Below are positions 5,494 through 63,336 of a stretch of 64,000 nt of DNA, in pieces. Under the pieces are notes generated by a model. That model was not told where the DNA came from, ran no database searches, and saw only the letters and a list, made by a program, of their open reading frames with translations. A program made the position numbers and the translations under genes. Each line of letters begins with the position of its first letter. Position 1 is the first letter of the stretch. Location of the stretch: NCBI GenBank assembly GCA_001724265.1, contig MEDY01000133.1, positions 1 through 64,000 of the forward strand, written 5' to 3'. Origin of the DNA: Rhizaria sp. SCN 62-66. Taxonomy: Eukaryota.

Positions 5494-8400
5494 TCACTGC
5501 CGCAGTCGAGCCAACGCCTCACGCGCTCGTGGATACTGACTTGCAGCCCTCTCATACATGATAATTGCCTTTTCCCGATTTCGCTCAACGCCATCAGCAG
5601 TGGCATAGCACAATCCAGCAAGATACTGCGCTCGCAGCAAGTCATGGTTGTTTTCTGCGACTTCAATAATCATTGCAGCACCTTTTCTCTTGTTCACCTC
5701 AACACCGATTCCGCGCATATAGCAGAGTGCAAGCGCAAGCTTGCCTTCCGGCACACCCATTTTTGCGGCCCTGTTGGCAAGCCCCCAGATCTCGATAAAC
5801 TGCAGCCTTTCGCTTATTAACACCGGATATGGCTTATTCTTACTTGCGTCTTCGAGCAACACCATCGCACGCAACGCACGCCTTGCTGCAGCGTGTCCAG
5901 AGCCGCCGTCACTGGCAGCTTTCCACCACCACACTGCTTCGTGAAGGCGGTCATTGTTTTGCAATTGTAACGGAGAGCTCCGCTCCTTTGCGGCGTTTTG
6001 CTCAAGCATCTCGGCGTACAGATACTGTGCGCGTACAATGCCGCACTCCGCTGCAATACTCAGATGTGAGATCGACTTATCATGTTCACCGACATACGCA
6101 TGCGCAGGTCCGTATGGCACTTCGCACGTGGCTGCGCGTACTTTGTGCTTGTGCGCAGCGGCTAAGTCAGGGGCAAGACCAAAACGTCCTCCTTGCAGCG
6201 CATTGCCAAGCTCAAAACATGCCATTGGATCTCCAGCCTCTGCACCGGCCTGCAAACGCGCGACAAGATTGTCCAGGAGAGGGTCCGCGTTTTGGATGTC
6301 GCCAAAGTCGTAGCGCAAAACAGCAAGTGCGGCAAGAGCACCATCAGCTTGAATAGAACCCTCTTTACGGACTGAAATGAGCATGATTTCAGCATTTTCG
6401 AGATCAAGATTAGCGTCTTTAAGCATTCGCTCAGCTTTCTCCGAGTCAACCTTATCAACAGTCATGAACCCATCCTTCTTGAAGTCAATGTTTCGCGAGA
6501 TGAGCCAGAGAGCACAGTTGTACGCCCCCATAGCGTCCCTGTTTGAAAGGTTCATCATGAGCCGATAAGCCTCACGAGGGTTATAAACGCCCCATTCGGG
6601 GCTGCAGTAGATCATCGCAAGCTTGCGCTGGGCTTCAAGATTGCCAAGCTCTGCAGCCTTGCAAATGTCGCAAAAAATCTCATCTTTGCGATCGCAGTTC
6701 CTGATGTTGCTGATTCGATTGATGAGATTGTATGCTTTGTTGAACAGCATTTGTGCATCATCGCAAGGAGGCAATTGCAGCGGCAGCGCAGCATTAGAAA
6801 CAGCATTTTTACCCTGTACCGCGTTTGAAACGAGATGATTCTGATAGGAACCGCGAACTCCAATAATGCTATTCGACAAATGTTGAGCGGCATGCTGCGG
6901 AAGATGAGAGATACTAACACCACGGATCCGCTCTTCTCGCTGCTCTTGGATTGATTCCCGCTGATGCAGATCCGGGACTGGCAGGGAGTCTTGTTCTGAT
7001 AGTCCCGGCGGCGGCGGCACTGATGATAGCTTAGAATCGAGCACAGGCCTTGGCTCCAACGGTTCGTGTGGGAGCTTTAATGGCCGTGGGGGTCGCTGCG
7101 GTCTCGCGTCAACATCTGAATGCACTGGCGCAGGCGGCAAGACAGAGGGCCGGTGAGTCTTGGGAGGTGCGGGTAGGGCGCTCTCTGAGTCACACGAATG
7201 CAACGCAGAGCCCGAGTCCTCCGGCCACGGTGACAGACCACCCAAAGGGACTTGCGACGGCGGTGACTGCCAGTACATCTGCATCGCATTTGATAGCGGC
7301 TGCGTTGTTGATGATGGCGACGCAGATGATGCTGTTGTTGATGATGAGAGCGACAGTGATAATGTGAGCGGTTCCAACGCGTTTCTCGCACGTTCTGGTT
7401 GTGATTGGAGATATTCGTCATCGCCATCTTGATACAAGTCCCCCTGGGCTGCTTTGGAGGCTTCAGCCAGAGGATCGTTGTTCCACCCCCTTCCTAAACT
7501 ATAGCGAGAGTTGCGCGGGGTGGAGCCCAAAATGACGCTGCCTGAGAGGCTCGTCCTCCCAGTAGCAAGATTTGCGACATCAGCTGGAGGATTTGGCAAT
7601 GGGAGAAGAGGAGGGTTGTTCAAGCTTGGCCTTGTCGACCCAGGTGTAACAGGCCTGCTGTGTGCATCAAGCGGCGGCGGCTTCATTTGCCCCGGTTGTT
7701 GCCCGCTCTGCTGGTGTGGCTGTGGTGACGGCGTTCTCAGTACGGCGGGTCCGGTTCCGATGCCAGGCAAAGGAAACCCGCCCCATGGGAGCGTCAGCAA
7801 ACCGCGCTCAGGCCCCTGTGTCTGCCCTTGCGCGAGCGCGTTTGGTGTTTGAGCTCCAGCACCGGGAGCCGCCTGCGGTGGCGGCTGCGGCGTTAACGGG
7901 CGTAACCCATGTTGGGATTGTGACTCTGCGGGTAAAGGTCGCAACGGCGGAGGGTGAGGCTGGCATGGCAACGCAGCCTCTTGACCCAGACTTATAGCAA
8001 ACCTGCGAGACTATGCTGCGGAATGCCGTTTTTTCAGCTAACTAACTAGTTGTTGTTTTTGCTGTTGTTGTTTCAGTTGCTAATATTGCGCTGCCAACTG
8101 CTGTTGATTAGCAATGGATGGTGGCGTTACAAGCGAATGACACCTAACAGTGTTGTTCTGTAAAGCTTCGTTCCTTGCAGAGCTCCCGTCACCGTCTGTC
8201 ACCGCCCGCGGCCGCGTTGAAGCATTGTCGCCTGCTCCATTTAACAGCGGTGTCATCTGCCCAAGCGCGCTGAATTCTTCGTCTCCCGTCTGAGAATGCG
8301 TCTGGTCTGAAACTGTGGCACCCGTGGCTCGGTCTCCTACTTGCGGTTGCGGCGGCGGCGGTGGAATTGACATCGTCTTTGTGTAACCAGGCGTCAAGCC

Positions 8401-10400
8401 ATGGTTTTCAGCCTCACCATGAACAGCAGCAGAAGAAAAAGCAGCAAGATTAGCCGTTGTCAAAGTCTTGTTCATAAGCGTCAACACGTCATTGCTATTG
8501 CTTGCCAGCTTTGTCAGCCGTGTCACCACTTGGTCCACTGTAGGCCTTTTGGCGGGATCGGTTTGCCAACATTCTGCAATCAGTGTCGACAACTCTTGAC
8601 TGGGCGCGGTGTCAGGGTGAAATCTGTTCTTCTCGTCGTAGCTTGCAACATTTAGAGTTGGCCGAATGCCATCTTTGACGACTGTCAGCACAGCAGAGTC
8701 GGGAAGCCCGTCGAACGGACGACAGCCATACGCAATCTCATACAGAGTCATACCAAGTGCGTAGATGTCAGTACTTGTACTGTGCTGTGAAATGGTGAAG
8801 AGTTCCGGTGCCATCCAACTTATCGTGCCCCTTTGAGACAGGGCGGGTGCTATAGCATTAGTACACACGACCGTGACAACGACAGCAACAAGAAAAAAAC
8901 ATCGGGTGTACGGAGGACATTGTGAGATTAGATATCGTGTTGCGAAAGCGTGTTTCAGCAAAATGGTATGTTTCGTTATAAATCAGTGCGCACACTTTGC
9001 ATTTACTAGTCTGGTTTAGCGGGAGACGTACATGTATCACGCGAGAGAGATTGTAACGTGGACTGCAACTTTGCGTTCCCGAAGTCGGTAACTTTCACAA
9101 CAGGCTCCGTTCCTTTGCCAGATACTGCCCAAAGAAAGTTCAACGGCTTAATGTCGCGATGAATAACGCCGTTCTTGTGCAAGACTTGCACTGCAAGTGC
9201 CACTTGCTTTGCAAGCCACACACGGCCCGCTGCTGTGAGCATCTTGTAGTCGGTGCTAGCAAGTAGAGCTGTCAACGCGCCACCATCCATAAACTCAATC
9301 ACGATGGCTAAGTTGCCGTGGTTAACACTGTTAAGGATACTGTTGGCGTCTTCATAGCCGTTGTTACTTGCGTCGATCTGAGCGCCAGCACTATACGCTC
9401 CGCTCCTGACACTACTGTTCTTGATTTCTACGAGACCGTAACAGTGCGTGATAAAGGATGATGACTGCAATCGGTAGTGCACACAGAGCTCGTTCAGGAC
9501 TTCTGCATCCTTGCATAGAATGTCAGCTTTCGCTTTCAACACCTTTAGTGCAACAGCGGTGGTCTCTTGATTGTACTTCGCGTTGGGGTTTGCCATGTGT
9601 TGAGTCTTGTTCGCAGTGTAGAGTGCACGGTAAACGTACGAATAACCACCCTCCGCAAATGGACGCGCAATAACTTTAAAATCAGTGTACGGTATCTTGG
9701 GAATAGTTTGTGACTTCCATTCAATGACTGAGATCCGCCGAGGAGGGGGGTTGACAAGGGCACTTGGACCTGCCTTGTTACAAGCCGCTTCAGGGATACC
9801 CCCAGAACTGCCAGCGGCGCCGCCGTGAGCAGCTCCAGCAAGGTTGAGTTGGCGAGCGTGCACGTCAGCGGGACGAAGGCTTGAACTAACGATTCCAGGC
9901 TATGCAGGGATTGACGCCTTGCGACTAGAGTTGGAGACAAGAATGTCGAACATGAGGTTGGACCGCACTTCCCCGAGCCTGAACCTCAGGTACTGATACT
10001 CATCGTTGATGCCGTTAGCAAACAGAACGCGTGAAAGACGAAAACGGCGATTAATCTTGTTGATGAAATTCTCGCAATCACCAAGAACAAGAACAAAGTC
10101 TTTGAGTGACTTGTAGCAACCATGACAGAGATCTTGGGGCATGCCCTCGACTACTTCTAAGAAAAGGAAACACATAGAAAAAGAGAGTCGAAGTACAACT
10201 GAAGGTTAGAAAGCATGTCATTTTTGCAATATACAGTTCATATGGTTTGAAAGCTCCGAGATATGTGTTTTGTCGCACGCACCAATCAAGACACTGACGT
10301 CCTTCGCCAGTGACCGAGCCTGCTTTGCGTTGTCTTTGTCTCGCTCAAGCAAGGAATATACATCCTTCGCAGCGCCAAGCACGGTGGCAAACGGATCCAT
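5494..10400 (-). CDS. Helical N-terminal domain (MLKL-NTD-like) + protein kinase + Sel1-repeat protein, paralog A (~1532 aa, 3 exons, 4 in-frame TAG)
   Basis: Exons 10400-10283, 10156-9032 and 8849-5494. Kinase motifs VALK, HRDIKPLN, DFG, GTISWMAPE, DIYALG. C-terminal Sel1 repeats (EAQRKLAMIY, ACFELG, AQYLAGLCYATADGVERN). Frame is continuous if the TAGs at 9900-9902, 8080-8082, 8038-8040 and 8011-8013 are read through. Stop TGA. Confidence 0.85.
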
Positions 10401-11542: not shown

Positions 11543-14500
11543 TTATGAGTCGATGCCATTGAGAAACCGATACAGCTTGCGCGCGTTATTCTCCCCGACA
11601 CCAGGAACTGTCTTGATCTGTTCCTCAGTAGCCTGACTGAGCGCAGCCAGCGATGAAAACGCGCGCGCAATCTGCGGAGCTGACGCCGGCGTTACACCTA
11701 CGAAACACAAAGATAACACAAAATAACGTTAGAATAGTGATCAGATTTACGGATTCGATTGCGATTATTGCTAATCATGAAATCCGGCGATTCATAGTTC
11801 AGATTTAACCACTTACCTGGAAGTGCTTTCAGGATATCAGTCGCTCGAGTTGATGCCCGCTTGGAAAACGGCCCACCGTCACTGCTCACAGTCGCCACAG
11901 CCAGCGCACGCGCACTACTTGCGCGATTGGAGTCGCTCACTGACGTTCGCGTCGGTTGGGAGTCCACGTCTGTAGTTTCGGCGGTCGCAGCGTTGTTCTT
12001 GTTGGGATTGACTAACCGTCCGATCGCAGAATCTGCAGGAACGCTAACAGTCACACGATTCGCAGTTACACCAGAGTTAGCATTGGCGCTAGCCACGTTG
12101 GCATTCAAGTTGGCCTCCGCGACAGCGGCGGGCACATCCATAGTCCCGCTGTGGGTCGGCAACGGAGGCTCAGGCCGGCCGCGCTTAAGCTGAAGGAAGA
12201 TTGATGACGAGTGTTGAGGTCCCCGGGACCAGAGCTGAACAAGACAACGCGAATATGAACATAAAATGAGGCCAAATGATCGAATCCAAAAAAAGAAATT
12301 GAAAAATTACTCATGCACATGGGTAAAAATAAATCGATACACGTTATGATTATGATTGACAAAACGTTGGATATTTGAAGAACGTACGAGGCGCATTGTA
12401 GGGAAGCGAATCACCAAATCAACCAACAACGTTCCAATTGATCGCGAGTTCAAATTAGGTGTCACCCACGTCGGCCCGCCTGTACTAGCACTGCTGCTAA
12501 CATTCGCACTCGCAGCGGCACTCGCATTTGCATTGGGGCGTTGTTGACCTGCAGAACCCTGGGTATGACTCTGGTTACCCATAATTGTCGACGTTGCTGA
12601 ATTGCTCGGGCTCGCCTCCATCACCACGCCCATATCAGCGTAAAGTGATTGTAAGTACCGCCGAGACAACGCCCCCGCGCCCGCTGTGCCACCGCCCGCG
12701 CCGTACACGGGCACCAGCCCGAATCCACCGCCGGCCTCAGCGTCTGTCTCAATCAATAGTAAAGGGGCGGGGATAGTGCGCGTTAACGTGCGCATTTGCG
12801 ACAATAGGCGCGGGGTGATGTCGGTAATTCCAGGGCCAGGTTGCGATGGACGCAGTGACTGTGACAAATCGGGAAGAGACTTGCGCTCGACAATGAGAGA
12901 CGGCGTGAGCAGAAAGTCACCAATTGACAACGTCGACGGTACGAGCTAAGAGGGCAACCAACAGGCAAAAAAACATGAGCTATTACAAAGGATGTGTTTT
13001 CTTATCGCATGTATCTGATGCATAGTTGGTGTCAAGCAAGAAATAACACATTTCACCAAATTGTAAGTCAACCTATGCTCGACATCAGAACGTACCTCAA
13101 TTCCTGCAGCGTCAAGGGCGGCGGGAAGTTTCGAGTTAAACTCGCGGATATCCACGACAACCACAGGCCTGCGCAGTGCAAGTAGCCGCGCCGCCCATAG
13201 ATCGCTTCCGAAGCCGCCCACTAGCTGGCCGCCACCGCCACCAGCGTCACTGCTGCTGAGAGAAGTGAGAGCTGTTGCGAGTGCGGAGGACGAGGCGTGC
13301 GGACCGAGTCCCCTGAGAGCGTCTGCTTCACTGCCGCTAAGCCCAGCAGCTGCAGCAGCACTCGCGCTGCCCGCATTTGCTGTCGCTGTTGAACCTGGCG
13401 CGACACCGCCACGACGGGTGCTATTTGTGCCGGTGCGTGCGTCCTGAGCGGCGTTGTAGTCATCAAGCGCGCTGCGGGCCTTTGTGCGCTCGAGTAAGGA
13501 TGCGAAAGATGACGCGCCGCGGCGGGCGCTGTCGGCGTCAACGTCGGATCCAATCTCAATAGCAGAGGCGGCCAGTGCTGCAATAAAACGTCATCAAATC
13601 AAATGTAAGAAGTAAAAGTAAGCACATGAGGCAAGGTACATTCAAGAGCCAGTTGATTAAGGGCAATACACCAAACACACAAGAATTCAGATACAGTTAT
13701 AAAAACGATTGTTTGATCTTCGGGATACGAATGTACCGTCGCCATAATGCGTTAGGCTCGACTCTGTTGCCGCTCCAGACGCTGTTGGACTAGCGCTTGT
13801 AACGGTATAGTTAGGGTTCGCGCGTGCGGCCAGCAGCCTGCGTTTGGCTTGAGCTGCAGTCTCCGTCAGCACCATTGTCGCGCGGCACTCGATCAACGTG
13901 TCAAACGCAGATGCCTCTGCAGCAGCAGCACTCGCGACCGCCGCAGCAGCGCTGGCGGGAGCATACGCGTTTCGCTTACTATTCGAGTCGCTAGTCGGTG
14001 CTTGTTGTGCGAGGACAAATACGCGCGGTCGAGCAACGCTCCAGAGTGACTCGACAACTGCAGTAGCGCTTGAGATCGACGACGTCGAGTCACCAAGCGA
14101 ATGTTTCTTGTTGGTAAGCGGGAGAGTGATTTCAAGCTCCCAAGGACTTACAGTCGCGGGTAAAGGGCTTGCAGAGATACTGATGTCGACGGAGTTGTTG
14201 CCTTCGTGCAGCAGAGAAGTTAAGCCTCTGCCTCCAACATGACAGTCGGCAAGCTTGTTCGTAAGGCACTCACAGCAAGAGTCGTAACTACCATTGTCAT
14301 CGCTGATATTACACTTGCAGCGGATCACGAGCGTCACAGTGACGACAGCCGCACCAGCAGCAACGCAGGCTCTGAGATCAACAGTGTTAGTAATATCAGG
14401 TGCAAGCTCAAGAGCCACAGACGCCGGCAAGACAGCAGCACTTGGCAGTGCGTCAAGCGAGTTTGAACATGTCTGTGGGCCGGAAGTGCCTTCTGTAACG

Positions 14501-17500
14501 GCAGTAGCAATAGAGCTAGCTCCACCACTGTTCGCGCTCGTCGAGCTTACAGTATTGTTGTTATTGTTAATCGCAGCAGCAGGGCCGTAGATGCTGTCAC
14601 GCACGCTAACAACGGGGGCTTGATCAGGCACCAGTGCGAATATGAACGTGACACGCATAGTCTTGAAGCTAAGCCGCTCCGTGACACCGCGGTGCGATGC
14701 GAGAAGTGAAGAGACTTTGGGCAGCGCAGAAGAGGTGTACAGAGGTGCTAAGTGACCATGGGCAGTGAGGGCAGTGCGACTGTGAGCAGAGCCAATCAAG
14801 ACCATTGCAATAGGGCTCATCGTGCCGATAACGGTGACATCATGAGTTCTCGCACTTGAGCTCGTGTTATATGCAGCGCTGCTTGCCACGCTTCTAATCT
14901 CATCGTCAGTCATGTTCGTTGCTGTCCGGTCACTGGAGTCCGTCATCTTCTCACTGGCGGTGTTAGCATCACCGTTACTGTTTGTATCATTCACTACAGG
15001 TAATTGGCCGCTGATGGATGACATTGTGTTCGAGACTGAGGGAAGATTCCAGCGCCATGCGCGGCTAAACTTCTGCGTCCCAGGGGGGCACCGGCAAAGG
15101 GCACGCAACGCACTTAACTCGGTACCGCTAACATCAGATGCACCAGATGCACTTGCAGCTAAACCAGAAACGCCTGAGCTTGACACATTTAAAGCTGCGT
15201 TGACTGCATCAAGCTCTGCTTCAGCTTCGGCCTCAGCATCAGCGTCTGCCTCGGCCTCGGCCTCAGCTGCCTCAGCAACTGCTTCCACGAGTAAAGCAGC
15301 GGACGAAGACTCGCGCTGATTGACACTCGGCCGCGTCGGTTGCAGTGCAAAGAGCGGTAAGTAACCGGATGATGTAAGTACCACCGCAGCATCCATCCAC
15401 TTAGATCCCCAGCCAGTAGCGGCGGTTGTTGCGACTGCAGCAGAGGCAGCGGCGATAAGTGACGGGGCGGGGCCTGTAACGAGACTAGGCACAGTCATGG
15501 GCACGACCTTCTCACAGACGTAACGACTGCTACCAACCGCTACCTCAATACCGCTGGCGAGACTGCCCTTATTGGTGTCATTATGCATGTGTGTGAATGC
15601 ACGAGCCTTCGCTTTAGCAAGCGCATCTGTAGCTTGGAGGCGATGTAGCGCATGTGCTGTCAACCAACCGCAGCTTGCGCCAGATCCGCTTGAAACAACG
15701 ACGACAGGAGAAGCAGGAACAGTGTCAGCCGTGCGACTGCTATCAGTCTCATGGATCGCGCTAGTGGTAGAACGTGGGGTACTTAGATCAGCGTAAGTAC
15801 CAGTAGCTGTGTTGCGCAGTCCGGTGATTGCTGTGAATGCAGCGCTGAGTGGAGTTAGCGCCAACTGGCCCTTCGTATGCGCTGCAGCCCAGAGCTCAGT
15901 CGCCCGCAGAGCTGGCAGTGTCGGTGCAGCAATCACGACTGCCGCGGGGACCGGGGTGGTGACCGTGAGCACGGAGGGTAAGAGACGTGAAGGGATGGCG
16001 ATCACGGTCACCGGGATTGCAATGGCACCCACACCGCCGTTGTCGACACTCATAGAGCTCTGCTGAACTGAATGCACTGCACCAAGTTTACTCCACGCTT
16101 TTGACGAGAGCAGCTTTTTGGGCAGTGAAAGATCGATGCCAGGTGAAAACACGGAAAAATGGCTGACGTGGACACTAATCGAAGAAGAGGAGCTTGCGCT
16201 GCCAATGTTTGACGTTGAAACGAATGTGCCACTTTTGTTCTCGGTCTCATTATCATCATCATCATCATCGTCATCGTCGTCGTTGTCGTCGGCGCCAATA
16301 TCGTCGTTATTGAGAGTAGGATCGATCTCGTCATCGCTGGCCTGCACACTGTGGAGGCCGTCATCGTCGACACTGATATCAATGCTGTTCATGTTGTCGT
16401 CGCCATTCTCGCTCGCGCCACCATCATCGTCGTTGTTGGCAACGGCGCTTGTGGTACTTTCAGATACACCCTTGGATTTGGATGACCATGCTGCCTTTGT
16501 CGGGGTACCTTTGCTTTTACTCCTCACCTTCTCGCGCGTTGCACTCACAAAACTCACACCGGCGCTTTTCTGCTGTTCCTCGAGCCTCAAGAGCTGTTGC
16601 TTCTTGTAGTACGCTAACTGTGACTTTTCACGCTCAACGTGCGCCCTTGCCATCTCCGCAGCCGCTGCTTCACGCAATAACCACGTCTCAACTCGCTCGG
16701 CCAACAGGGGCGGCTTAGCATAAATGCCGCCAGATGGGTCGGTAACATAAGCCGCATTGTATGTCCGCAAAGCAAAGAGTTCTCGTTCAATAGCTGCATA
16801 CGGCGAGGAAGTGCTATTGATCGAACCACCGGAGGCAGAGACAGGAACAACAGTCGCAGCCGCTGAAAGCAGCGGTGGCAAACAGTCAATCGAGGGAGCA
16901 GTGCGCTTACGTGAATATAAGCCGCCAGGCGCTGGCGCTGAGCCGGCAGAAGTAGAGGTAGAGCTGCTGCTGGCATGTTGTGTCTGTGGTTGTTGCTGCT
17001 GTTGTTGCTGCTGTTGGAGAAGTTGTTGCTGTTGTTGCTGTTGATGTTGCTTGAGTTGCTGTTGGGGCGCGATTTTCAGGTAAGCCGCGAGCGCTGCCCG
17101 TTGAGCGAGCGGCAACAATGGCGGGATACAGCAACAACGACTGTCGTGACCATAGAAGCGACTGTGACCGTGAGCATCAGACTTGTTTGCTCCGGGAACA
17201 AGGTGGCTGTGCACAGGACAGCGGGATACGAGCTGCGGCAGTAGGTTCACAAGCAGTGCCAGAGACGGAGGTTTGGGTACACCGGCACAAACAGTCAACA
17301 AACCGTTCATATAAGCATCACGCTCACTTGCTGTGGCTGCAGCTGCACAACTCGATGCTGAAGTTGTGGTGAAATGATGCGGAGTACTTAGATTCGACGT
17401 CAACGCCACCTCTTGTAAGTACTGTTCCCAGCGGCGCCGCAGCACGCTGCCCCGTACAGCGTCCACGGCAGATGCGTTAACGCAGTGCGGATTCTGCCGA

Positions 17501-20500: not shown

Positions 20501-21906
20501 ATGGGGGGGCCACTGGGAACAACATACGCTGGCTGTTGCCAACTACTCGAGTCTGTGATGTTAATGCGAGAGCTCGCGCTCGCGTTTGCAGAAGTGTTTG
20601 TGGTGTTGACGGTGGTGTTGCTGAAACGAGGGGGAGTGTAGTCGTAACCACGACTAGTGCATTCCATGACCCACAACGCTTGCTCACAGTCACTCTCATA
20701 CTGCTCCGGATCAGTCACAGTCCGTTCTGACAGATGAGACAGCTCACAGTCAGTGTCTGTCCGCTGCACACGGTCACTCGTCGACTGCTCACGGTCACTC
20801 ATGGCAGTGCCACCAAGCTGAGTGACCATGAGCCCGCCAAAAGGCCGATTAGCATTGGAACTCACACCCGCACGTGTACTTGCAACGACAGTCGTCGTAT
20901 CACTGGCGTCGGCTTTGGTGGCTGTGAGCACGATCGGTGCCTGTTGTAGCAACAACGACTGTAGTGCCCTCGGCCAAACTGACTGCTGCTGATGCTGATG
21001 TGACACCGGTGACTGCGGCCGCGTCATTCCCTCTCCAGACCTCAGAAGCAAAGGGCGCAGATGAAAACCCGCGGGACTCGTGGTCAGAAGCACCTGCGGC
21101 GACTGTGGCCACGCCTGCGCCCTCTGCGGCTCTAGCCCCGCCACCACAAGTGCGTTGAACCGCGGCCACAGCCGAATGCGACTCAACGTCAAAGCCCTGA
21201 GCAGCCTCTCGAGCGCCAGACCGCCGCCGCGGGCCACAGCCAGGGGGTCGTCGGTCAGAGAGGAGACGAAGGCAGAGGCGGGAGCGCGGGTACGGAAGAG
21301 TCGCAGTGCGAACTCGTAGTGGCTACCGCTACTAGCGCCGCTGCCGCCGCTGCCGCTGTCGCCAGCGTTACTGTTTGCACTTGTGGTAGTCGCAGTCGTG
21401 GCCGTAGCAGCAGGAGCGGCGCTCCCGTCGCTCGCGCCATCGCTGGAGGCGGGTGTGGCTGCGGCTGCGGCCGCCGCGGCTGATGCAGTGGTTGGGAGAG
21501 CGATGGTGGTGGAGGATTGAGGGCGCAACAGCAATAGCCCAGTCAAAGCAGCGTAAGGGATCGTGTGCGAGAGGATGTCGACAATTAAGTTGCGTGGGGT
21601 GGTGGCAACAACGCCGCCGGCAAGGTATGCGTGCTGGCGCTCAAGAGGGGTTGAGGACGTGAGATATGTGATGGGTTTTAGCCGTGCAGCTGTTAACGCC
21701 ACAGACAATAACTCGCACTGACTTGCAGTCATGCCGAGCACGAGCAGAAGCGATCGCGGGGTTGCATAGCGCGCAAGGTAGGATAGCAGAACAGCGTCGG
21801 GGGCGAGACCTGTGCCCAGGACGACGAGGGTGTCTGGTGTGGCGAGATCAGAGACGATGGGGGCGAGGAAGCGGAGGGACTGGACCTCGGTCCATAACGC
21901 GCTCAT
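11543..21906 (-). CDS. ERCC4: DNA repair endonuclease XPF/ERCC4/Rad1, greatly expanded (~3260 aa, 5 exons, 1 in-frame TAG)
   Basis: Exons 21906-13737, 13577-13096, 12945-12388, 12234-11817 and 11697-11543. N-terminal helicase-like motifs (YLAGGVVATTPRNLIVDIL, FALRLFR, LWPRF). Nuclease motifs VVVDIREF.SKLP and GDFLLTPSLIVERKS. C-terminal HhH (ILKALPGVT...VPGVGENNARKLYRFL). In-frame TAG at 20302-20304. Stop TAA. Confidence 0.9.
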
Positions 21907-22467
21907 CGGTCCCCAGGATATGCGCTCTTAGGCAGGGATTTTAAAATAGGCTAAGAAACATATAAGATAAATAATCGTGCTAGGTTAGAATGTGATTGTT
22001 TTGAACTCACTGACGGAAGATTGGGCGAGATATCCAAAGGGGAAGATCTGCAACTTAAGGCGGGCAACGAGATCCATCTGATCAAGAACAGCTGGCGAAA
22101 CCACATATGGACTGAATCGAACAGGTATATCTTTACCTATGGAATTAAAACACCCCTATATAAAATAACTGTGTATGGTTGGCTTTATAATCACGGGGTG
22201 GCCATAGAGCAGATATTTATCCTTGTCAAAGACGCAAAATGCAACTCGGAACACTCATCGCAACTCAGGCTACCATGTCACGATCCATGATTGCACAGTC
22301 ATCGCAGTAGCACTAAAACACAAGTCAAATACACTAGAATGCGTAGCTTTGATATTATAATCATTCATATGCAACTCAGCGCATCCGACTTAGGCGTGTC
22401 GTTATCTCGACGGTCACCTGTTCTAGTCATACTCTTTTTCGATCGACTGTTACAGCTCTTCCAACGT

Positions 22468-52562: not shown

Positions 52563-53022
52563 ATGGACCGTAAGTCCGACTCGGACGCGCTGCGCGACGC
52601 ACGCAGCCTCCCAGACTCTCGCGACTAGACTGCTCGAGAAGCTACGCTCCACACCCATCCGCCCACTGCAACTCAGCCCCCGTCGCCGTCTCCACAGCTG
52701 CAACAGTCGCAGCAACCACCACCGCGCCGTGATGCGCCGCCCGACGACCCTTCTGCCGCTGGCGCTGCCCCTGCCGCTGCTCCTGCTGCTGCTGTTGTAG
52801 CGCTTGGCGGTGATCCTGGCTCTACTGGCAGTGCAGCTCCGGTGGGAAAGCAAGCCGTCACGACAACAACTACGGTGACGGCGACTACGCCTGCACTGGT
52901 GGTGGCGGCCGCGGCGCCTGTCGCAGCAGCATCCGCCCCTGTTTCTGCAGTTGCTGCGCACGCTCCCATCGCTCACGCTCCCGTCGCGGCTGTTGATGCT
53001 GCTGCTGCTGCTGATGCTGCTG

Positions 53023-53083
<61 letters not shown>

Positions 53084-53338
53084 GGGGACTGCATCGGCGA
53101 CGTCGAGCCTCGACGTAAGCGCGGCTGCGTCAGCTGCTGCGACTCCGGCCGCCGTCGCCGCCACCACTGCCGCCGACTTCGCCGCCACGACTGACAGTGG
53201 CGCCGACAGCGCGCGCGCGAGCGGCGCACCGAGTATGCGCGCCAACAACACGGCCGCGACCGCTGCGGACCCGGCTGTGGCGACGACGACGGCTAGCCCC
53301 GGTTCTGCTGCTGCGAACGTCCACAACAGCAATTACCA

Positions 53339-53370
<32 letters not shown>

Positions 53371-56300
53371 CGTCGCAGCGTGTGGGGGCGGCTGTCCGTT
53401 CCCACAGCGCATCAGCAAGCGCTCCGACCACCGCAGCAACAGTCGCTGTATCAGCAGCAACAGCAACAGCAACAGCAGCCGCGAGCAACATGAGTGTGAA
53501 TCATGCGCACATGACCAAAGCGTCTGTGCTGACTCCTGTGTCCGCGCCTGCGCCTGCGCCTGTGGGCACTTTGAGTGACCCTACGGCGGAGGCAACGATG
53601 GCTAAGGCTCAAGCGAAGGGGCAGAGTGACGGTGTGATGACACCGCAACAGCAGGATCTTATCAACCAACGGCACCACAACTACATCTACTAGTACGTCA
53701 GCGTCTCTTAAATAGCGTTCTTATGTCACAATAATATTTTAAGGGCTCTTTAGGCGAATGCAGGTTGCATTTTCTTTAGTAGGCGCGAAAGCACGTGCAC
53801 TCGAAACCACACTTTTAGAACGTGTCTTCGATATCAATCGATTATGTTGATGTATTCTTGTGTTAGTGTATGATTATCTAACAACATTTGACTTCACGTT
53901 GATATTTTTTCATATATTTAGCTTTCGCACCCGTCTGTGCCCTGCTGCCTCTGCGGCCGCCGCTGCCGCCGCTGGCTCTGGCTCCAACTCTGTTGCCGAC
54001 GTCATCGGTTGCCCCTTGGACCGTAACGAGTGCTCTGACGCTCATACGGTCTACCACTTACGCAGGCAACCCTTGCTCGTACGTCGTCACCGATTCGATT
54101 CTAAGTGCTTCACTAGTCAGCAGCTAAGTGAACCTCGACTTGTGACTCCACTTAAGTTTGACAATCACGTTCTCATCTTTCTGAATTAATTTCTTTGTTT
54201 TTGTGTTTATTAATTGCAGGACTTGCGGTACGGCCAGTACCCGCACCCCTTGGGCCCCGCCGCCCCGCTGTGGTCTTACAGCGCCGTGCCCTGCCTCTTC
54301 TTCTCTCTCACCGACTGCCCTTTTGGCGCCCACTGCCCGTTTTCACATCGGGCACAGCTGGAGTCGGCGTATCACCCCAGCGTGTTCAAGTCGCAGATGT
54401 GTTCCGCGCCCTTAGACCCGCTAAGCACCCCCTTAGAAGGTCTAAGTACTGGGCACGGTGATGCTGATACCAGCAACTGCGGGCTTTTCTGGTGCGCTGC
54501 CTATGGTAAGCATTGCTCCAAGGCCCACAGTCCGGCTGAGCTCCGTTTCCCTCCCAACACCACCACGGGTACCCCCGCTGGTACTGGCACTGAGCCCGCC
54601 GCGGGTTCCAGCGGCAGCGGCAGCGTAAGTGCTTCCTCTGCGACTGTTGCTGCCGCCGCCGCCGCTGGCACTGCTCCCCAGGGCCACTCTGACTGTCTCC
54701 CTGACCCTCCCCAACACCGGACACTGCTGCAAGCCGTGCGTGAAGTCCTCTTCCGCCGTCTGTTGACCGACAGTGACCGTGCTGCCGTGAAGCGGTTCGG
54801 ACATCTCAGAGGCCGTGGCGAGTGGGCGAACGTGCGCCGGGCGCCGGAGCTGGCGGATATCTACACAGCTGCACTTGCCACCCTCAATCTCAACAGTAAT
54901 AACAACAACAATAGCAACAACAACAGCAACAACAACAGCAACACCAACGCTAGCTTGATTCCTACTGCAACGATCCCTAGTAGTCACACCCTGGGGGGTG
55001 TTTCGAGCAGCAACAGTTACCAGCAACAGCATCAGTACCAGCAGCAGCAACTGCAACAGCAGCAACAACAACAGCAACAGCAGCAGCACAACATCAGCGG
55101 ATCCTTGCAAAACGCGAGCGGGTTAACTTCGAGCTTCGCGACAATGGATGCAAACAGCAGTCGCGCGAGTAGTCGTCCTGACTCGCGTCTAAGTGCGCAC
55201 AGTCACCAGCACTTACCCTACCACGTCCAGCAGCAGCAGCAGCAACAGCAGCAACAGGCTGCCGGCAACGCTGCTGTTGCGGCTGCGGCTGCTCACGGTC
55301 ACCCTGCGAGTGCTTCTGGCGGCTTCGGTCAGCATATGCTGCACAAGGTGCCGTCTTTCGGCTCCCACAGCCACATTCACAGTCATACTGCGTCCCCTGC
55401 GCACGGTCACAGCCATGCGCACAGTCACCCTGCCCACGGTCAGTACGCACCGCCTCTGGGCGCTGACAACGTGGCCGCTGCTGCTGCGTATCAGCAGCAG
55501 CAACAGCAGCAGCAGCAGTACCAGCCGCATTATTACCTGCCGCCGCCTTCTTCGCAACAGCAACAACAACAGCAGCAGCATCCTCAGCAGCAACAACCGC
55601 CGTCTCAGCCACCGGCGCAGTTGCAGCGCCATCAACCGCTGCAGTTACACCGGCGTACCCACAGTCACTCGTCCACGAGCACCAACGCGAGCACTTCATC
55701 AGGCGCCCACGGTCACGCTCACGGTCACCCTGCTGCCCACGGTCTCGGTCATCCGACTGCTCACGGCCACGGCCACCCAGGTGGGTATCTGTACCCGCAT
55801 CCTTCCGCTGGCTCTGCACACGGCCACCCTGCTGCTCACGGTCACCCGGCGGCTGCCCACGGTCACCCGACTGCGTACGGCCACTCCTCTGTGCCTCAGA
55901 GTGCGAGTGGTCCCACTGGTGGTCGTTTGCGGTCTGCGGCAGCGTCCGCGGCCGACTCCCGCTCTCTCGTGCACCTCATGAGTACTGCGACACACGTGGC
56001 CAGCGCGCACGCCGATGCTGACGGACCAGACGCAGATGCTGCGGACGTTCCAGACGCCGGCGCTGAAGCCTCCGCTGCCGCTGCCGCGGCCGCTGCTGGT
56101 GCTGGTGCAGTTGCGCCAGAGAATCCTCCAACACCCGCCACTGCGACGATCATTGTCACTGGTGCGGACCACGAGTACGCTCACGGTCACCCGGGTACTT
56201 CTGCTGCTCACGGTCAACATGGTACTCACGGTGCCCACGGTCAGCCGCCGAGTGCCGCGGATGCGTACAGTGCGATGCTAGCTGCGTCTAAGGGTGGCGC

Positions 56301-59300
56301 CACGGCGGGTACTTACACGGAAGTAAGTGGGGCCCAGGTGGCGCCGGTGTACTTACACCATGCTAGCGGGTACTTACAGCACCCTCAGCAGCAACATCAG
56401 CAGCAGCAGCAGCAGCAGCATCAGCATCACTTGCAAGAGTATCCGTACAATGCAAGTCACAAGGGCAGTCACATTACACCCAACAGCAATCCTGACTCCA
56501 TTGCGTTCGTGGCTCCTGCTCCTGGCTCTGGCTCCGCTGCTGCTAGTTCTGGCTCTGGTTCTGCGACGTCCTCGGCGAACGCCGGCGCTCTCAGCGGCGG
56601 CAACGGCCACCATCGGCGCCACAACTCTGCCGCGTTTGCATTCCATAACAGCGGCGCGAACAGCTCTAACTCGAGCGCGAATTCGAGCATGTACGTGAAC
56701 AACGCGAGCTCGAGCGGCGCAGTTGTCGCCGCCGCTGTTGCTGCAGCAGCGCAAAGCCGCTTCATTAGCCATAGCCGCAGCCACAGCCAGAGCCAGAGCC
56801 AGGGCCAGCCGTTTGCTGGCATGGGTACTCATGGCGCTTACGGTCACTTGTCTGCGCACGGTCACTTGCAACTCTCGCGCGGGCATACGCCGAATCTGAA
56901 CAGCAGCAGTCTAAGTACCCCCTTAACCACTGCTGCGACAGCGCCCTTAGACGACATTGAGCTTCGGAGTATGTCGATCGCAACTCTGCTCGCCAACGCG
57001 CGCCACCATCTAAGTAGCACTCCACAGGGGACACACACGAGCCCTGCGGCGACGGGGGCGAATGGTGCTGCGACGACCACTGTCAGTGTCAGTGTGCAGA
57101 GTAGCGGTGGCGCGGTCATGACGATGGGCTGCAACCGGAACAACTGCTCGTGCTGTAGCGATGTTCCACTCTCTTCTGAGTCAGCAGTGCCTCAGCCGAC
57201 AACTGCGACGACTGCGACAACGTCGACTGTTTCTGTGCCTGCTCTTGTGCCTGACAACAGGAACAAGACTACGATGGCGAATAACGCCAACAACAACGAT
57301 ATTAAGAACGCCAACATCACCACGATTACTACCACGGCCGCAACCAACGCCACGGATGATACCGGCGCTGCGGTTGCCGTTGGCAACAACAATAACAACA
57401 CTAGCAACAACAACACGGCCCCTCGCATTGCTTCTGACGCTGTGATTGCTTACAAGACTGAGACTAAGCCTGAGATTACCACGACTAAGGCTGATACGAC
57501 TGAGACTGTAACTGTACCTGAGCCTCCTACGAACGACAACGAGATTGAGGCTCTGATTGATACTTCAGCGACTGAGACCAATCCGATGATTAAGACGGAT
57601 TCTGATTATGTCTCAGCTTCCGCCTCTGTGTCGGCTCCCGCGACTTTAACTGCAACTGCAACTGTTCCTGTGTCCGTGACCGTGCATGTGCCTGTGACCA
57701 CACCTGTTGCTGCTGACGGCAACGTAGCTGATCCTATTGATGACCCTGTCTGTACCTGCAACTCTATCGACAGCACGAACGCTGCTGCCGCTAACGTCGG
57801 CACTGCTGACTCGGGTGTTTTCAACGACAACAACACCATCAAGACTGAGTCGACGACTGTTCCTGAGGCTGAGACTGCAGTTGCCGCTGCAACCAAGCCT
57901 TCCGAGGCTGAGGCTGAGACTGCGATCGAGACTGCAACTGCAACTAAGACTACTAAGGCGGAGACTGCTGTTCCTCAAACGACGGACAAATGCAGTTTAG
58001 TCGTCGAGACTACTACTGACCCCGACCTAAGTACCCCTGTGGCGGCCGCCACGAACAGTCAAAGTACCTCGTGCGCCAACTCTAAGTGCATCCTGCGCCG
58101 TTTGCAGGATTGGCAGTCCCGTGAGGCGCCTGTCCACTTGGAGGTGATGCTCCACTACCAAACACGCGTGTGCAAGGGGTATTTAGACGGCGGCTCCTGC
58201 CCCTTACCGGCGTCTGAGTGTTTCGACACGCACGGCCCCGTCCCCTTACGCAGGGTTCCACGTATAAGTGCTTCAGGTAAGTACAACTACTACCCCGTCC
58301 GCTGTCGTCCACACAGGACGGCGCTGCTTGCTCTCACGCTTGCCAACAACAAGAACTCCGCCTCAGCCAACGCCAGCGCTAACTCAAACGCCACCGCCAA
58401 TGCTCACAATGCAAGTGCGAACGTACATAGTGTCGATGCGGGGAACAGTTTCGGCGACAGCCATAGTAACTACCACCAGCAGCACAGCATCAGCGACTCG
58501 GTCGTCAGTGGTCACAGCACAGCCACACTGTACGCGGCGAGTAACAACATCAGCGCTGTGTCGGCCGCGGCGGCGTTACTCAAGAACGTCAACGGCTGCG
58601 GCGGCGCCGACTGCACGCACGCGCACAGTGGCGAAGAAGTCGTCTACCACCCGTCTAAGTACAAGACGCAGCTCTGCTCTAAGTACCCCCTTACCGTCGG
58701 CGCGGGGCCTAAGTACCTCCTGAGCACTTCTGATCACACCGCGGCTGAAATGTCGACCGCGAATGTAAGTGCCGAACATCTGAGTACCACGGACCACCAC
58801 GCGAGCAATGTCCACAATCCTAACAGCACTATCATTGGCAGCGCGGAGGTGACTCCCGTTGCCGGTGTTCACAGTTCTAGTCCCAGCGCTAGCCTCACTG
58901 CTGCCGAGATTGTCATGGGCGCTAGCGCTGACTCTGCCGTTGGCTCCGGTTCATCTAGCTCCAGCTCCAGTTCTAGCTCTGGCTCTGGCGCTGCTGCTGC
59001 CCCAGGCGCGGACGCTGACGCGGGCGCGGGCGCTGGTATCAACTCTGGTACTGGTGTCGGGTCTGGATGTGAGCGTTTTGGTGGCTTTTGCGCCCGCGCC
59101 CACAGCCAATCCGACCTCCGCTCCCCCGTGCTCGACTTGACTCTGCTCGCCAAGGCCGCTGCGAGCGCGCTCAACGCCGCCAGCGTCGCGACAACGGCCG
59201 CGACGGCGACGGCGGCGGGATGCGGGAGTCCAGCCAACAGCATCAAGACCACGCGCAGTGCCACCGCGAAATCGGGCAAGAAGCAGCAGGATAAGCAGCA

Positions 59301-62300
59301 CCCTGGTGCGACGACCGGTGGTGGCGGCCGCAGCAACGCGTCGGATACGCATATCAACAACGTTCTCGGTGAGATCACTGCGAGTGACCGTGCGAGTGTG
59401 CCGAAACAGTGGCATGAGGCGCATTGGTGGTCCTTTGTGTGTCCGCCGTCGCAGCGGGAGCAGGAGCAGCATTACTACATGTTTCACTATAAGACACGTC
59501 CCTGTGCTGCGTTTAAGCCGCCTTCCATCCAAAACAACGCCAACGCTGCTGCTGGTAGCACTGACAATAACGACAGCGCTATTGCTACTGCAACTGAACG
59601 CGAGCAGCAGCAACAGCAGCAGCTGCCGCCGCAGCAGCAGTGTTACTGCTATGGCTTCGGCTACCACCGCGACGAGGAACGCCGCCGTCCTCCTTTCCCC
59701 CACGCCACTCCCATCCCGTGCCCCAAAGTCAAGCCACCTGTCGCCCACGGCGCCGCGGCCGCGCAGGCCGGCGGCGGCGGTCCTCAGGTCGGTGGCCAGT
59801 CAGTGTGGGGAGCACCTGGGTTCAGCCCCGTTGACGGCACGTGCCACCACGGAGTGAGCGGTGCGGGTAGTCTGAGCGGTGTCATCACGAGCAGTGCGAG
59901 TGGTGCTGTGTTGCACTCGATTGCGCCTGTTGCTCCCCCTTCTGCTGCTGCTGCTGCTGCTGATGCTGATGACCAAAAGCGTCCGGACGCTGTGGCTGCG
60001 GACATTGAGACTTCTGCTCCTGCTGCTTCTGCTGCTGTCCCTCCGGCGACCACGAATCAGATACAGAGCCAGTGTGCATTGGCGCACACGTTCTTGGAAG
60101 TCATGTACCACCCGTCGCTGTACAAGACGACTCTGTGCTCTTTCTTCGACGCGACGAACCCTGCCCGCGCACAGTGCGTGTGGCGTCGCCGCTGTGCGCA
60201 CGCGCACGGCTACGGCGAGCTAAGGGGCAAGGAGGCGGCTAAGGGGGAGTGGGCTGCGTGGGTAAGCGCGAGTCTAAGTAGCCACGGTCACACTGGGAGC
60301 GTTTCCGGTGTGAAGAAGAGCGTGGATGTCACCACGGGTACCACGGGTTCTGCCGCAGCCGCCACCGCTGCTTTAGAACCGGTGATGGTGCCTTCTCCAG
60401 CTGATGCCACCAACGCCAACTCCTCTGACTCGGTGGCTGTGACCACCCCGACCGCGCCTTCCGACGCCGCCGTCGCGCCCACCGCTGCCAAGAGCACGAT
60501 CCTCGCTGCGCCGCCGTCGCCCGCCCTCTCCAGCCGCACCGGTCTGCAAGCACAACAGCAGCTGTCGAGTGCGGCAACGTCGGGCGACGCGGCGGCTGCG
60601 GCGATGGCGATGCCCCGGTCGCCGCCGCAGAGCACGAGTAGGCCGCCGACCAGTTCGACCGCGTTTGTGCCCAAGGGCGGCGGTGGCAGCGGCAGCAGCT
60701 CTGCAGGCGCTGCAGCTTCGGGTGCTGCAAGTTTAAGTGCTTCCCGCCACCAGTCGTCTAAGGGTCACGCCGTGCCGAAGGGCGGTGTGCCACCTGCACT
60801 GCAGATCAACTCGCCCAACAAGTCGCCCTCGAACCTGCACTTACACTCGCATCTGCAGCAGCCCCAGGGCCAGCAGTCGCATGGGCAGGGGCAGGGGCAG
60901 GGACAGGGACAGGGGCAGGGACAGGGACAGGGGCCGCCGCCGCCGCTGTCGACGCGTACCGTGGGGTACTTCGCGTGGGGATTGACTCATGGCAGTCAGC
61001 TGCCCCAGTCACAACCGCAGCCTCCGCAGCAGCACCATGTCGCTCAGGGGCACTTACAGCAGGGGCACCTACAGCAGGGGCACTCCCAGCAAGGGCTCTT
61101 ACATGCGCCGAGTCAGAGTCACCTCCACTTACACGCGCAACCACAGCAACAACAGCCGCGGGCGCAGCAGCCGCAGCAGTATGTGCATTCTAGCGCTCCT
61201 GTCCCTGCCCCTGGTCACGGTCACGCTGCTCCCCACGGTCACCCTCACGCTCACGCTCTCGGTCACGGCCAAGGCCCCAGCCATGGTTATCATCCGAGTG
61301 ACCCTGCTGCCGCCGCCGCCGCTGCTGCTGCCGCCGCTGCTGCTGCTGCTGCGGGCGGCGGCACCGTCTACGCCCACGGTAACCCGCACGGCCACCCTCC
61401 CCATATTGGAGATCCGGGGGTTGTCGGCGGGACCTACATCGCTCCTGGCGGCGCTACTTACATCGCCCCCGGCGGTGCTACTTACATCGCCACGCAGCCT
61501 GGCCAGCCGCCGCACCACGTCCAGCACGTGTACTTCTCGCACCCGCCTGCTCACGGTCAGTACTTACACTACCCCCCCGAGCACTTACACCCGGCTCACC
61601 CAACCTCCGCACACCCACACCCACATACGCTTCAACATCACCCCTCTCATCAGCAGCAGCATCCGCATCAGCAGTACGCAGCGCCCTTGGCAGCCGCCGG
61701 TGTGTCGTCCAGCAGCGATAGCGGAGCGACGACCCCTGTGCCAGTGATGCAAATGCCGGTGATGGCGTACGGCGTGCCGTATCCTGCTGGAGCCCCGCCG
61801 GTGTCTGTGGTGTCGCACGGTCACGGTCACTATGTGCCAGCGCACGCCCACAGTCTCGCTCACGGTCACCCTGCTGCAGCCTTGACGGCGGCCGCCCACG
61901 GCCAGCCTGTCATGTTAGCGCATCCGCCGTCGCAGCCTCAGCAGCAGCAGCAGCAGCAGCCGCAGCAGCAGCCGGAGTATCTGCACTTGCCACATCAAGT
62001 CGTGCTGAACCACCAGCAACTGCAGCACTTGCAAGCGCAACAGCATCAACAGCACGCGCAACAGCAACAGCAACAGCAGCAGCAGCCTCAGCCTCAGCCT
62101 CAGCCTCAGCCTCAACAGCAGCATCAGCGGTATCCGCAAGGACAGCAGCAGCAGCAGCAGCCGCCGGGGGGTCAAAGCGGCAAGAAGCAAGGCGGCGGCC
62201 GTGCCGGCGGACAGCTGGCAGGCAGCGCTAGCCTCAACACCAGCAGCGCCACTATGCGCTCTCTGCCACCGGCCCCGTCGGCCGCAGCGCCGCCGATTTC

Positions 62301-63336
62301 GCGCTCGCTCGGTTCCCCCAAGACTAGCCAGGCGGGTCTCGCGGGCGCTCACGCCAGCTCCTCCTCTGCTGCTGCTTCTTCTGCGACTTCTTCTGCGGCG
62401 GTGAATAGGCCGGTGCAGCATACGCTCTCTAAGCCGCCTCTGCTCACGGTCTCCACGGTCAGCGGCGGCGATCCTTCCGCAGTCACGGCCGACGACGACC
62501 TCACCGCGAGCGCCGCACCGCAGCAGCCGCAGCAGCAGCAGCACGCAGCCACGTCCGGCTCAGCCGCGGCGAGTGCGCTGCCTATCGTGACTGGACTGGG
62601 GACTCAGGGCCTCGTGTCACCGGCGACGGCGTTAAGCGTGGTGCATCGTCATATGTACCTGTTTTCACCGACTCAGCCGTCGCAGAAACCGCAACAACAG
62701 CAGCAACAGCAGCAGTAGCAGCAGCAGCAGCAGCAGTATAGCGCTGCGGGTGTGTCGTCTTCGTCTCTGTCTCCGCATCCTCGCGCACATTTACACTCGC
62801 ACGCGCACACGCAGAATTCGCACTCGTACTCGCAGCAGCAGTCATACTCGCAGCCGCAGTCGCAGCTTTCGCCGCCGCCGCAGCAGCAGCAGCAGCACGT
62901 GCATGTAAAGCAGTCACAACATCAACAACACCATGTATATTCTCACTCGCAATACCTACACCCTCAGTATCCACACCCTTACACTCATCCCGGCCAACGG
63001 CAACAACAGCAGCAACCGCAGCAAGCGCAAGCGCAGCAGCAGTCGCAACAACAGTACCACGGGCACGGGCAGCAAGGGCAGGGACAAGGGCAAGGACAAG
63101 GGCATGGACTGCACCAACAACACCAGCGTGCCGTCAACTATAGCAGCAATCCGAGCAACATGAGTGCTCTGGGTGGTGCAAGTGGTTTGGCTGGTCGGCG
63201 TCCCTATAATAACAGCAACAACAACAATTCTAGTCAGCAACAACAGCATGCAGCTTCAACGAAGGCTGTGGCTGCTCTCTCAACGACGACGGCGACGTCG
63301 ACGACAGCAACGCCCTCTAAACAAACCCAACAGTAA
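52563..63336 (+). CDS. Unkempt-like multi-CCCH zinc-finger RNA-binding protein (~3467 aa, 3 exons, 2 in-frame TAG)
   Basis: Exons 52563-53692, 53922-54078 and 54220-63336. Repeated Unkempt-type motifs Y.(F/Y)(R/K/Q)TR.C, H...RR.P, C..(A/S)H...E..YHP..(Y/F)K(T/S)..C, C..AH....LR. Q/H/A-rich spacers. In-frame TAG at 52626-52628 and 62716-62718; TAA at 63334-63336. Confidence 0.83.
52995..53083 (+). repeat. (GCT)n trinucleotide repeat encoding poly-Ala
   Basis: Long GCT run in exon 1 of the CCCH gene. Confidence 0.9.

Follow-up and report, generated by a model that had tools for sequence, protein, structure and literature searches.

Here, we describe a 64,000-nucleotide (nt) stretch of DNA, referred to below as the window, that covers positions 1 to 64,000 of contig MEDY01000133.1 in the assembly of Rhizaria sp. 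SCN 62-66 (GCA_001724265.1). It has a G+C content (GC) of ∼0.55 and carries ∼15 eukaryotic genes with spliceosomal introns. Four of these genes are interrupted by in-frame TAG triplets, and our subject is what these triplets mean for the genetic code of the organism. Pfam matches or homology assign two paralogous protein kinases (A and B), an XPF/ERCC4 homolog and RRM, MRG, G-patch and CCCH proteins; the kinases, the XPF homolog and a CCCH zinc-finger gene are the four that bear TAGs. An earlier reading of the DNA letters (the original prediction) had listed nine in-frame TAGs in these genes, on the minus strand at 9900, 8080, 8038, 8011 and 20302, and on the plus strand at 33770, 35489, 52626 and 62716. 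All nine are present at these positions and in the frame of the flanking open reading frames (ORFs). The same frame does continue past each of them, as had been claimed, with 8-2204 codons open behind them (in the above order, 297, 13, 8, 838, 2204, 572, 17, 354 and 205). The material examined is the 64-kb window together with a single 2.6-kb related locus from another metagenome, L001.

The kinase A gene (5494-10142, minus strand) was identified by Pfam Pkinase and Sel1 matches and by paralog alignments. It encodes an N-terminal domain (N-domain), a kinase domain split by one intron, a long Pro/Ser/Gln-rich linker and Sel1 repeats, and it ends at the TGA at 5494. The intron (8850-9031) is 182 nt long and runs from a GTACGT donor to a YAG acceptor. 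Four TAGs interrupt this gene. The first, at 9900-9902, lies between the conserved N-domain and the kinase domain; the N-domain upstream of it aligns with kinase B (P0192), P0193 and L001, all three of which are uninterrupted into the kinase domain. The other three (8080, 8038 and 8011) fall within 72 nt, at 8011-8082 on the minus strand, at the boundary between kinase domain and linker. The one at 8038 is inside a short TTAG repeat, and the 838-codon frame behind 8011 reaches the Sel1 repeats. A relative, P0043, carries the kinase C-lobe, the linker and the Sel1 repeats in one uninterrupted ORF, and Mortierellomycotina proteins also bear kinase and Sel1 Pfam domains together.

Kinase B (31749-35545, plus strand) is a paralog of kinase A, with 39% identity after the intron, which in kinase B lies at 33016-33203. 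The gene reaches a TAA at 35543 once two TAGs are read through. The first of these, at 33770-33772 on the plus strand, separates the kinase domain from the linker/Sel1 part, with 221 codons open before it and 572 after. The second, at 35489-35491 on the plus strand, is 17 codons before the TAA and within a conserved C-terminal tail motif. Members of the family end in the motif [Y/H]-P-x-A-x-x-x-L followed by a short tail, and the TAG at 35489, the sole one within a conserved motif, occupies the [Y/H] column, where kinase A has Tyr (codon TAT), P0049 and P0068 have Tyr and P0043 has His. The 17 codons behind the TAG align with the family tail as far as its terminal FF/FW. Directly after the TAG, the P, A and L of the motif are invariant in six rows of the tail alignment, representing five distinct proteins since P0042 is identical in sequence to the kinase A reference. 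Six of the residues that follow (P, A, R, E, L and L) are identical in kinases A and B, and all six are written with different codons, which argues that the sequence beyond 35489 is kept at the protein level and is not the relic of a recent mutation. This is the clearest case of a TAG inside coding sequence.

As a whole, the family has a helical, conserved N-domain followed by a Pkinase domain whose single intron is conserved in position; a disordered linker then leads to Sel1 repeats at the C terminus. The family's closest named proteins with both kinase and Sel1 domains are from Mortierellomycotina, at 29-35% identity over 13-14% of the query in three of the four matches and 62% over 5% in the remaining one. 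A scan of a metagenome collection with the kinase alignment returned 80 loci, one of which (L001) belongs to the A/B family according to tblastn; the organism of the window itself was not found in the collection scanned. L001, from a different metagenome, shares the intron position and the GTACGT donor of the window kinases. A TAG interrupts its frame in the conserved helix of the N-domain, and a single tblastn high-scoring segment pair (E 6e-22) passes through it; the aligned relatives have Asn, Asn and Thr in this column. After a second TAG, at L001:2328, there is a TAA nine codons later and then AT-rich sequence.

L001:691-2360 is a short form of the family without Sel1 repeats. TAGs thus occur just past the kinase domain in three family members: three in kinase A, one in kinase B a few alignment residues away, and one in L001. 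This gathering may be due to chance in an unconstrained linker, or it may point to regulated short and long forms.

The XPF/ERCC4-like gene occupies 11543-21906 on the minus strand and consists of an 8.2-kb exon and four short 3' exons that encode the nuclease and HhH2 regions. The original prediction had equated XPF with two ORFs, and here it fell short: the gene is much longer, is crossed by four introns and stops only at position 11543, where a TAA closes an HhH2-like last exon. The TAG at 20302-20304 (minus strand) lies between the N-terminal helicase-like domain and the remainder of the protein. In phmmer searches against the PDB, residues 17-210 of human XPF match 20305-21927 (E 4e-14), upstream of the TAG, and nuclease residues 707-763 match 12310-12945, far downstream of it. 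There are 541 open codons before the TAG and 2204 after, and the flanks have a GC of 0.67 and 0.52, unlike the introns. Because the N-terminal domain and the nuclease lie on opposite sides, a functional XPF would require this TAG to be read. The predicted protein has ∼3,000 residues, about three times the length of its human homolog, owing to long Ala/Ser/Thr/Gln-rich inserts.

The CCCH zinc-finger gene (52563-63336, plus strand) comprises a first exon to ∼53689, a small exon and a main exon that ends at the TAA at 63334. It is recognized by weak Pfam CCCH matches, two GTACGT introns and a frame-specific codon score in the first and main exons. Its first TAG (52626-52628, plus strand) stands 21 codons past the sole upstream ATG. 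Behind it, 354 codons are open, the next in-frame Met comes ∼250 codons further on (read by eye from the translation), and the frame of the TAG receives a coding score over 52629-53378. There is thus moderate support for a position inside the coding sequence, the start codon being a predicted one. A further TAG, near 53690 (53687-53692, plus strand), straddles the exon end and its GTACGT donor, so no read-through is involved there. The second TAG in the frame of the gene (62716-62718, plus strand) sits near the 3' end, within a (CAA/CAG)8-TAG-(CAG)6 run, with 205 codons behind it to the TAA; GC is 0.565 over 62719-63336 and falls to 0.373 past the TAA. Its place inside the coding sequence likewise has moderate support. 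The C-terminal tail (62719-63336, plus strand) is of low complexity and rich in Gln, His, Tyr and Ser. Long open runs occur in each of its three forward frames, and the length of an ORF taken alone carries little weight in this segment.

The interruptions are specific to one of the three stop triplets. With intron models applied, the four genes amount to 8,826 codons and contain nine TAGs, no TAA, no TGA and no frameshift, which upholds the original claim on this point. Under a model of random nonsense mutation, the probability that all nine would be TAG is 0.0014-0.0035. An unbiased six-frame scan of the window for stops with at least 150 open codons on both sides returned four TAGs, three TGAs and one TAA. 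Three of the four TAGs are those at 20302, 33770 and 62716; the fourth is at 12946. The TGA junctions (1400, 3445 and 38067) were set aside as antisense shadows of real genes, the opposite strand scoring far higher for coding. Neither the TAA at 12307 nor the TAG at 12946 was kept as a read-through site, since each falls within a real intron that preserves the frame, in the part of XPF that encodes the nuclease.

The ends of genes differ from the TAG sites in what follows them. The original prediction counted 13 genes ending at TAA or TGA and two more reaching TAA after read-through. The total of 15 putative ends in the window and the lack of TAG among them hold (eight TAA, seven TGA), and four of the ends turn out to be insecure, with no clear GC drop or with a possible donor at the stop (an NDK-like ORF, orf26566, an EF-hand gene and orf50404), leaving 11 good ones. 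After the 15 TAA/TGA ends the frame remains open for only 1-36 codons, as against the 8-2204 codons after TAGs, and the median GC of the next 150 nt is 0.42 after TAA/TGA vs 0.59 after TAGs (Mann-Whitney p = 3.5e-4). In the second EF-hand ORF, the closing TGA coincides in part with a potential GTGAGT donor (43410-43425, plus strand); a further exon is possible there, and the stop is uncertain.

Sequences from other studies bear on the TAGs themselves. Runs X2 and X4 are DNA assemblies from studies and years other than those of the likely source sample, X8 is polyA RNA assembled into short contigs, and X5 is labelled RNA and flagged as probably DNA; all four were compared as contigs, among the contigs listed. 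The TAGs at 20302 and 33770 are present in both X2 and X4 contigs, and that at 35489 in an X2 contig. No variants are listed at these three sites in the X2/X4 contigs, and 33770 shows no other letters. The X4 contig crosses the kinase B intron without a gap, i.e. it behaves as DNA. ORF fragments bounded by the TAGs are recorded on 4-6 contigs. The TAGs at 20302, 33770 and 35489 are therefore not assembly errors.

Taken together, we consider it highly probable that UAG is a sense codon in the organism of this contig, with UAA and UGA as its stops. This reading draws on the continuity of domains and the homology past the TAGs, the poor fit of the sites to introns (discussed below), the restriction to TAG, the independent assemblies and the lack of genes ending in TAG. 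For at least seven of the TAGs, the parts on the two sides have to come from a single protein. The organism would then have a tRNA that reads UAG, either with a CUA anticodon or by efficient near-cognate reading, and an eRF1 release factor that no longer recognises UAG well, and UAA and UGA alone would end translation. UAG is rare and confined to linkers, tails and low-complexity parts of long genes, so it may be a young or inefficiently decoded codon. ARAGORN found no tRNA genes in the 64-kb window, and an Rfam scan of the window gave no matches; nor does an eRF1 gene lie within it.

Several observations weigh against this conclusion. The original prediction had already called UAG rare, and with nine in 8,826 codons, vs 98.6 expected from positional base composition, TAG is depleted ∼11-fold; it is missing from the short, better-conserved genes and is clearly still a disfavoured codon. 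The absence of TAG ends is weak by itself, as with 11 well-supported ends it amounts to 0.8^11 ∼0.09. Codon-usage scores do not show coding after 62716 or at 7000-8010. For ordinary genes, the score based on composition tells sense from antisense, but it fails on Pro/Gln-rich low complexity, and the synonymous-only score is underpowered, codon bias being weak. Since these scores are indecisive, support for 62719-63333 and 7000-8010 rests on ORF length, composition and homology. Furthermore, the TAG cluster in kinase A, the boundary TAG in kinase B and the near-terminal TAG in L001 could mark a regulated read-through site. On the side of RNA, none of the listed X8 or X5 contigs bridges a TAG or the kinase B intron.

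Among the alternatives, the one that survives best, improbable as we judge it, is that UAG is nominally still a stop and a leaky one, read by near-cognate tRNAs without a tRNA(CUA), giving mixed residues and both short (kinase) and long (kinase-Sel1) forms. The usual near-cognate readers of UAG are the Gln, Tyr and Lys tRNAs. Leaky termination would suit the rarity of TAG (9 vs 98.6 expected), its confinement to linkers and tails and the different residues in the two aligned columns (Y/Y/Y/H vs N/N/T). It would also suit the clustering at the kinase/linker boundary, with three TAGs in 72 nt in kinase A, one nearby in kinase B and the L001 TAG nine codons before a TAA. However, kinase A would have to be read through four leaky stops in a row, including one ahead of the kinase domain, and hardly any full-length protein would result; XPF would be deprived of its nuclease. 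It would also be odd, if TAG still terminated, that it is the terminator of none of the 15 window genes. The 3' contexts of the nine TAGs (CCTGGA, CAACTG, CTGAAA, TCTCGC, ATGTAC, GACTTG, CCCAAA, ACTGCT and CAGCAG) differ and hold no common read-through motif. The original prediction had likewise seen no single programmed read-through signal, and we reject programmed stop-codon read-through on this ground and because some TAGs precede catalytic domains. Leaky termination without a dedicated tRNA and full reassignment are inseparable with the present data.

Correction of the TAGs in mRNA is a still less likely explanation. In filamentous ascomycetes, adenosine-to-inosine (A-to-I) editing restores premature UAGs during the sexual stage (PMC4817773, PMC10776026); as in Fusarium and Neurospora, UAG would become UGG and be read as Trp. 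The likeness is that genes which are intact in other respects, a kinase gene among them, are broken by in-frame UAG and by neither UAA nor UGA. Fungal editing is described as preferring a U before the edited A, which makes UAG a favoured target, and PUK1, the first case reported, is a kinase gene that has two UAGs in tandem (PMC4817773, PMC11156358). The interruptions here are TAG only, the closest named homologs of the kinases are fungal (Mortierellomycotina), and Trp suits the aromatic Y/H column. On the other hand, the 71 such pseudogenes given for the whole F. graminearum genome (PMC10776026) contrast with nine sites in four of ∼15 genes here, a far higher density. The aligned residues do not favour Trp, which is poor in the N/N/T column and in the middle of a polyglutamine (polyQ) run, and no match obtained points to a filamentous ascomycete. 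Polyadenylated RNA contigs of X8 flank the TAG at 20302 (21214-21475 and 19365-19659), and no G is listed at TAG sites in X5 or X8, for which coverage at these sites is not given.

We give very little credence to the idea that the TAGs lie inside unrecognised introns with lengths that are multiples of three, spliced out of the mRNA. In-frame introns do exist in the window: three of the four in XPF, at 159, 150 and 153 nt, have lengths divisible by three. The TAG at 12946 forms the end of one of these, and another holds the TAA at 12307. The window has 11 confident introns of 119-238 nt, with a GC of 0.32-0.43, and all of them hold TAA and/or TGA. Their donors are GTACGT in eight cases, then GTACAT, GTAAGT and GTGCGC. 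To compare the TAG sites with them, every frame-keeping GT..YAG pair that spans a TAG site was enumerated. No in-frame candidate across the TAG sites has a GTACGT donor or a GC below 0.48, and for 8080, 8038 and 8011 no strong donor was found among the in-frame pairs. Candidates of plausible length exist at 33770 (GTGAGT, 222 nt, GC 0.52) and 52626 (GTAAGT, 231 nt, GC 0.68). The former would delete residues conserved between kinases A and B, and the latter is excluded by its GC. Overall the candidates have a GC of 0.48-0.68 and no in-frame TAA/TGA, in contrast to the 11 real introns. At 20302, the strong-donor in-frame candidates are at least 510 nt long with a GC of at least 0.56, and the only GTATGT donor close by yields a 226-nt intron that is out of frame (counted by hand). 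The TAG at 35489 is within a conserved motif, and that at 62716 is in a pure CAG/CAA run without GT. No TAG site therefore fits the pattern of the real introns.

As side observations, the donor consensus is unusually uniform, the range of intron lengths is narrow, and the intron GC of 0.32-0.43 contrasts with ∼0.55-0.6 in the exons; these traits may be of use in placing the organism. The second and third XPF introns each contain an in-frame stop flanked by >200 open codons on either side and so mimic read-through. The TAGs at 12946-12948 and 11698-11700 (both minus strand) are the final three bases of introns, i.e. their YAG acceptors.

Hardly credible, to the same degree, is that the four genes are pseudogenes or have newly acquired nonsense mutations, or that the TAGs arose as errors of sequencing or assembly. 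In favour of this, a single mutation separates TAG from codons that are common in the four genes (CAG, 360; TAC, 129; TAT, 77), and kinase A bears four TAGs. Against it, there are no frameshifts, TAAs or TGAs in the 8,826 codons (chance of nine TAGs in nine at most 0.0035), conservation at the protein level persists beyond the TAGs, identical TAGs recur in assemblies of other studies and years with TAG-bounded ORFs on 4-6 contigs, and the relative L001 has an in-frame TAG too.

If UAG is a sense codon, the amino acid that it encodes is a separate matter. The original prediction proposed UAG = Gln with UAA and UGA as stops (table 15); the sense role and the two stops stand, and the assignment to Gln is not established. 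Residues aligned to TAG were tabulated for two columns, Y/Y/Y/H (kinase B, 35489) and N/N/T (L001). Reasoning in the manner of BLOSUM, these two columns favour Tyr or His, and sequence context favours Gln. Gln-rich surroundings had been put forward earlier, and they are indeed found in the (CAG)n run at 62716 and the Q-rich stretch at 8080, with the reservation that Tyr and His, too, are frequent in the tail behind 62716. The polyQ contexts fit Gln by way of a single C-to-T change from CAG. As codons, the nine TAGs make up ∼1 per 1000 codons in the four genes that bear them, equivalent to ∼1.6% of Gln-type codons or 4.2% of Tyr-type codons. As a matter of judgement, not computation, we place Gln first, short of probable, with Tyr as a serious contender and any other residue unlikely; Leu and Trp (the latter as expected from editing) appear to fit the aligned columns poorly.

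There is a real, if lesser, chance that UAG is not Gln at all. It would then either encode Tyr or, once eRF1 had ceased to recognise it, be decoded ambiguously by the near-cognate tRNAs for Gln and Tyr, with no tRNA of its own. The [Y/H] column at 35489, the disagreement between the columns and the 11-fold depletion of TAG would fit such a reading. Were UAG to be Tyr with UAA still a stop, this would be the first such nuclear code. Were it read ambiguously, a lineage outside the ciliates would be living today in the intermediate stage of codon reassignment, at which a codon is unassigned or ambiguous.

In nuclear genetic codes, UAA and UAG are nearly always reassigned together. The changes of UAG alone that are described in the passages we cite are few, namely Iotanema, the rhizarian exLh, some phyllopharyngean ciliates and one oligohymenophorean (PMC5304391, PMC11687900, PMC10553269), the last being a ciliate in which UAA and UAG encode different amino acids (PMC10553269). 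A UAG-only sense code in the window would be a further case of a rare, already known type. Among the full texts searched (supplementary files excluded), none describes a code of this kind in a wastewater eukaryote other than a ciliate.

Iotanema spirale (Fornicata) uses UAG for Gln with UAA and UGA as stops, and where UAG came first after the coding region it was judged to be sense, with a true UAA or UGA following (PMC5304391). As far as that description goes, the window resembles it in that UAG alone has changed, UAA and UGA are stops, the organism is not a ciliate, and UAG is followed by UAA as in kinase B and the CCCH gene. In contrast, TAG is rare here (9/8,826), Gln is only a candidate, and the DNA is GC-rich with GTACGT introns of 119-238 nt. 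We found no link between the window organism and fornicates. The rhizarian exLh (Sainouroidea) reads UAG as Leu, with 384 UAGs in 71 genes, true stops that are only UAA (56) or UGA (15), and ribosomal protein genes that avoid UAG (PMC5304391). The cases share a UAG-only change in an uncultured non-ciliate known from mixed sequence data, and the free-living or coprophilic sainouroids would be a plausible match in habitat. However, UAG use is high in exLh and rare here, and the columns (Y/Y/Y/H and N/N/T) do not suggest Leu.

In phyllopharyngean ciliates, UAG alone was reassigned, once to Leu and twice to Gln, with UAA as the preferred stop. These cases came from metagenome mining, and suppressor tRNA(CUA) genes are reported in two genomes (PMC11687900). 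The window is likewise derived from a metagenome and keeps UAA as a stop, but those organisms are ciliates with widespread UAG, whereas here UAG is rare and UGA is a common stop (7/15 ends). Mesodinium reads both UAA and UAG as Tyr (PMC11687900). A Tyr reading of UAG would suit the [Y/H] column at 35489; the difference from what is described for Mesodinium is that both UAR codons changed there, whereas TAA ends 8 of the 15 genes here.

UAG-only cases provide a test bed for how changes in release factor and tRNA separate UAA from UAG. Another, independent example would bring in a eukaryote outside the ciliates that is rich in GC, carries introns and turns up repeatedly in wastewater-type samples, and its rare TAGs in unconstrained protein segments look like an early stage of codon capture. 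A practical consequence is that standard-code gene callers would split or truncate the proteins of this organism; database entries P0004, P0191 and P0042 are such fragments.

The window sequence recurs across bioreactor, wastewater and activated-sludge runs of several studies. Given this recurrence, the introns and the eukaryotic genes, the contig is nuclear DNA of an uncultured, non-ciliate microbial eukaryote. The contig is not ciliate-like, being long and carrying many genes, with a GC of 0.55 and introns that measure 119-238 nt. A contig of at least 64 kb with ∼15 genes, a GC of ∼0.55 and conventional introns is unlike ciliate macronuclear DNA. The organism may be linked to a known lineage such as Sainouroidea.

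Further genes of the window, read by eye from ORF translations, include EF-hand, LYR-like and dynein-intermediate-chain-like WD proteins, which we take to be putative members of these families. A Sec14/CRAL-TRIO gene (40415-42160, minus strand), also noticed by eye, is backed by homology search. Its relatives in metagenomes have 79, 66, 59 and 48% identity and lie on contigs of up to 178 kb (cluster member P0041). With identities of up to 79%, these relatives indicate that related species or genera are present in public metagenome data. The named homologs of the Sec14 protein are all from plants, at 33-41% identity.

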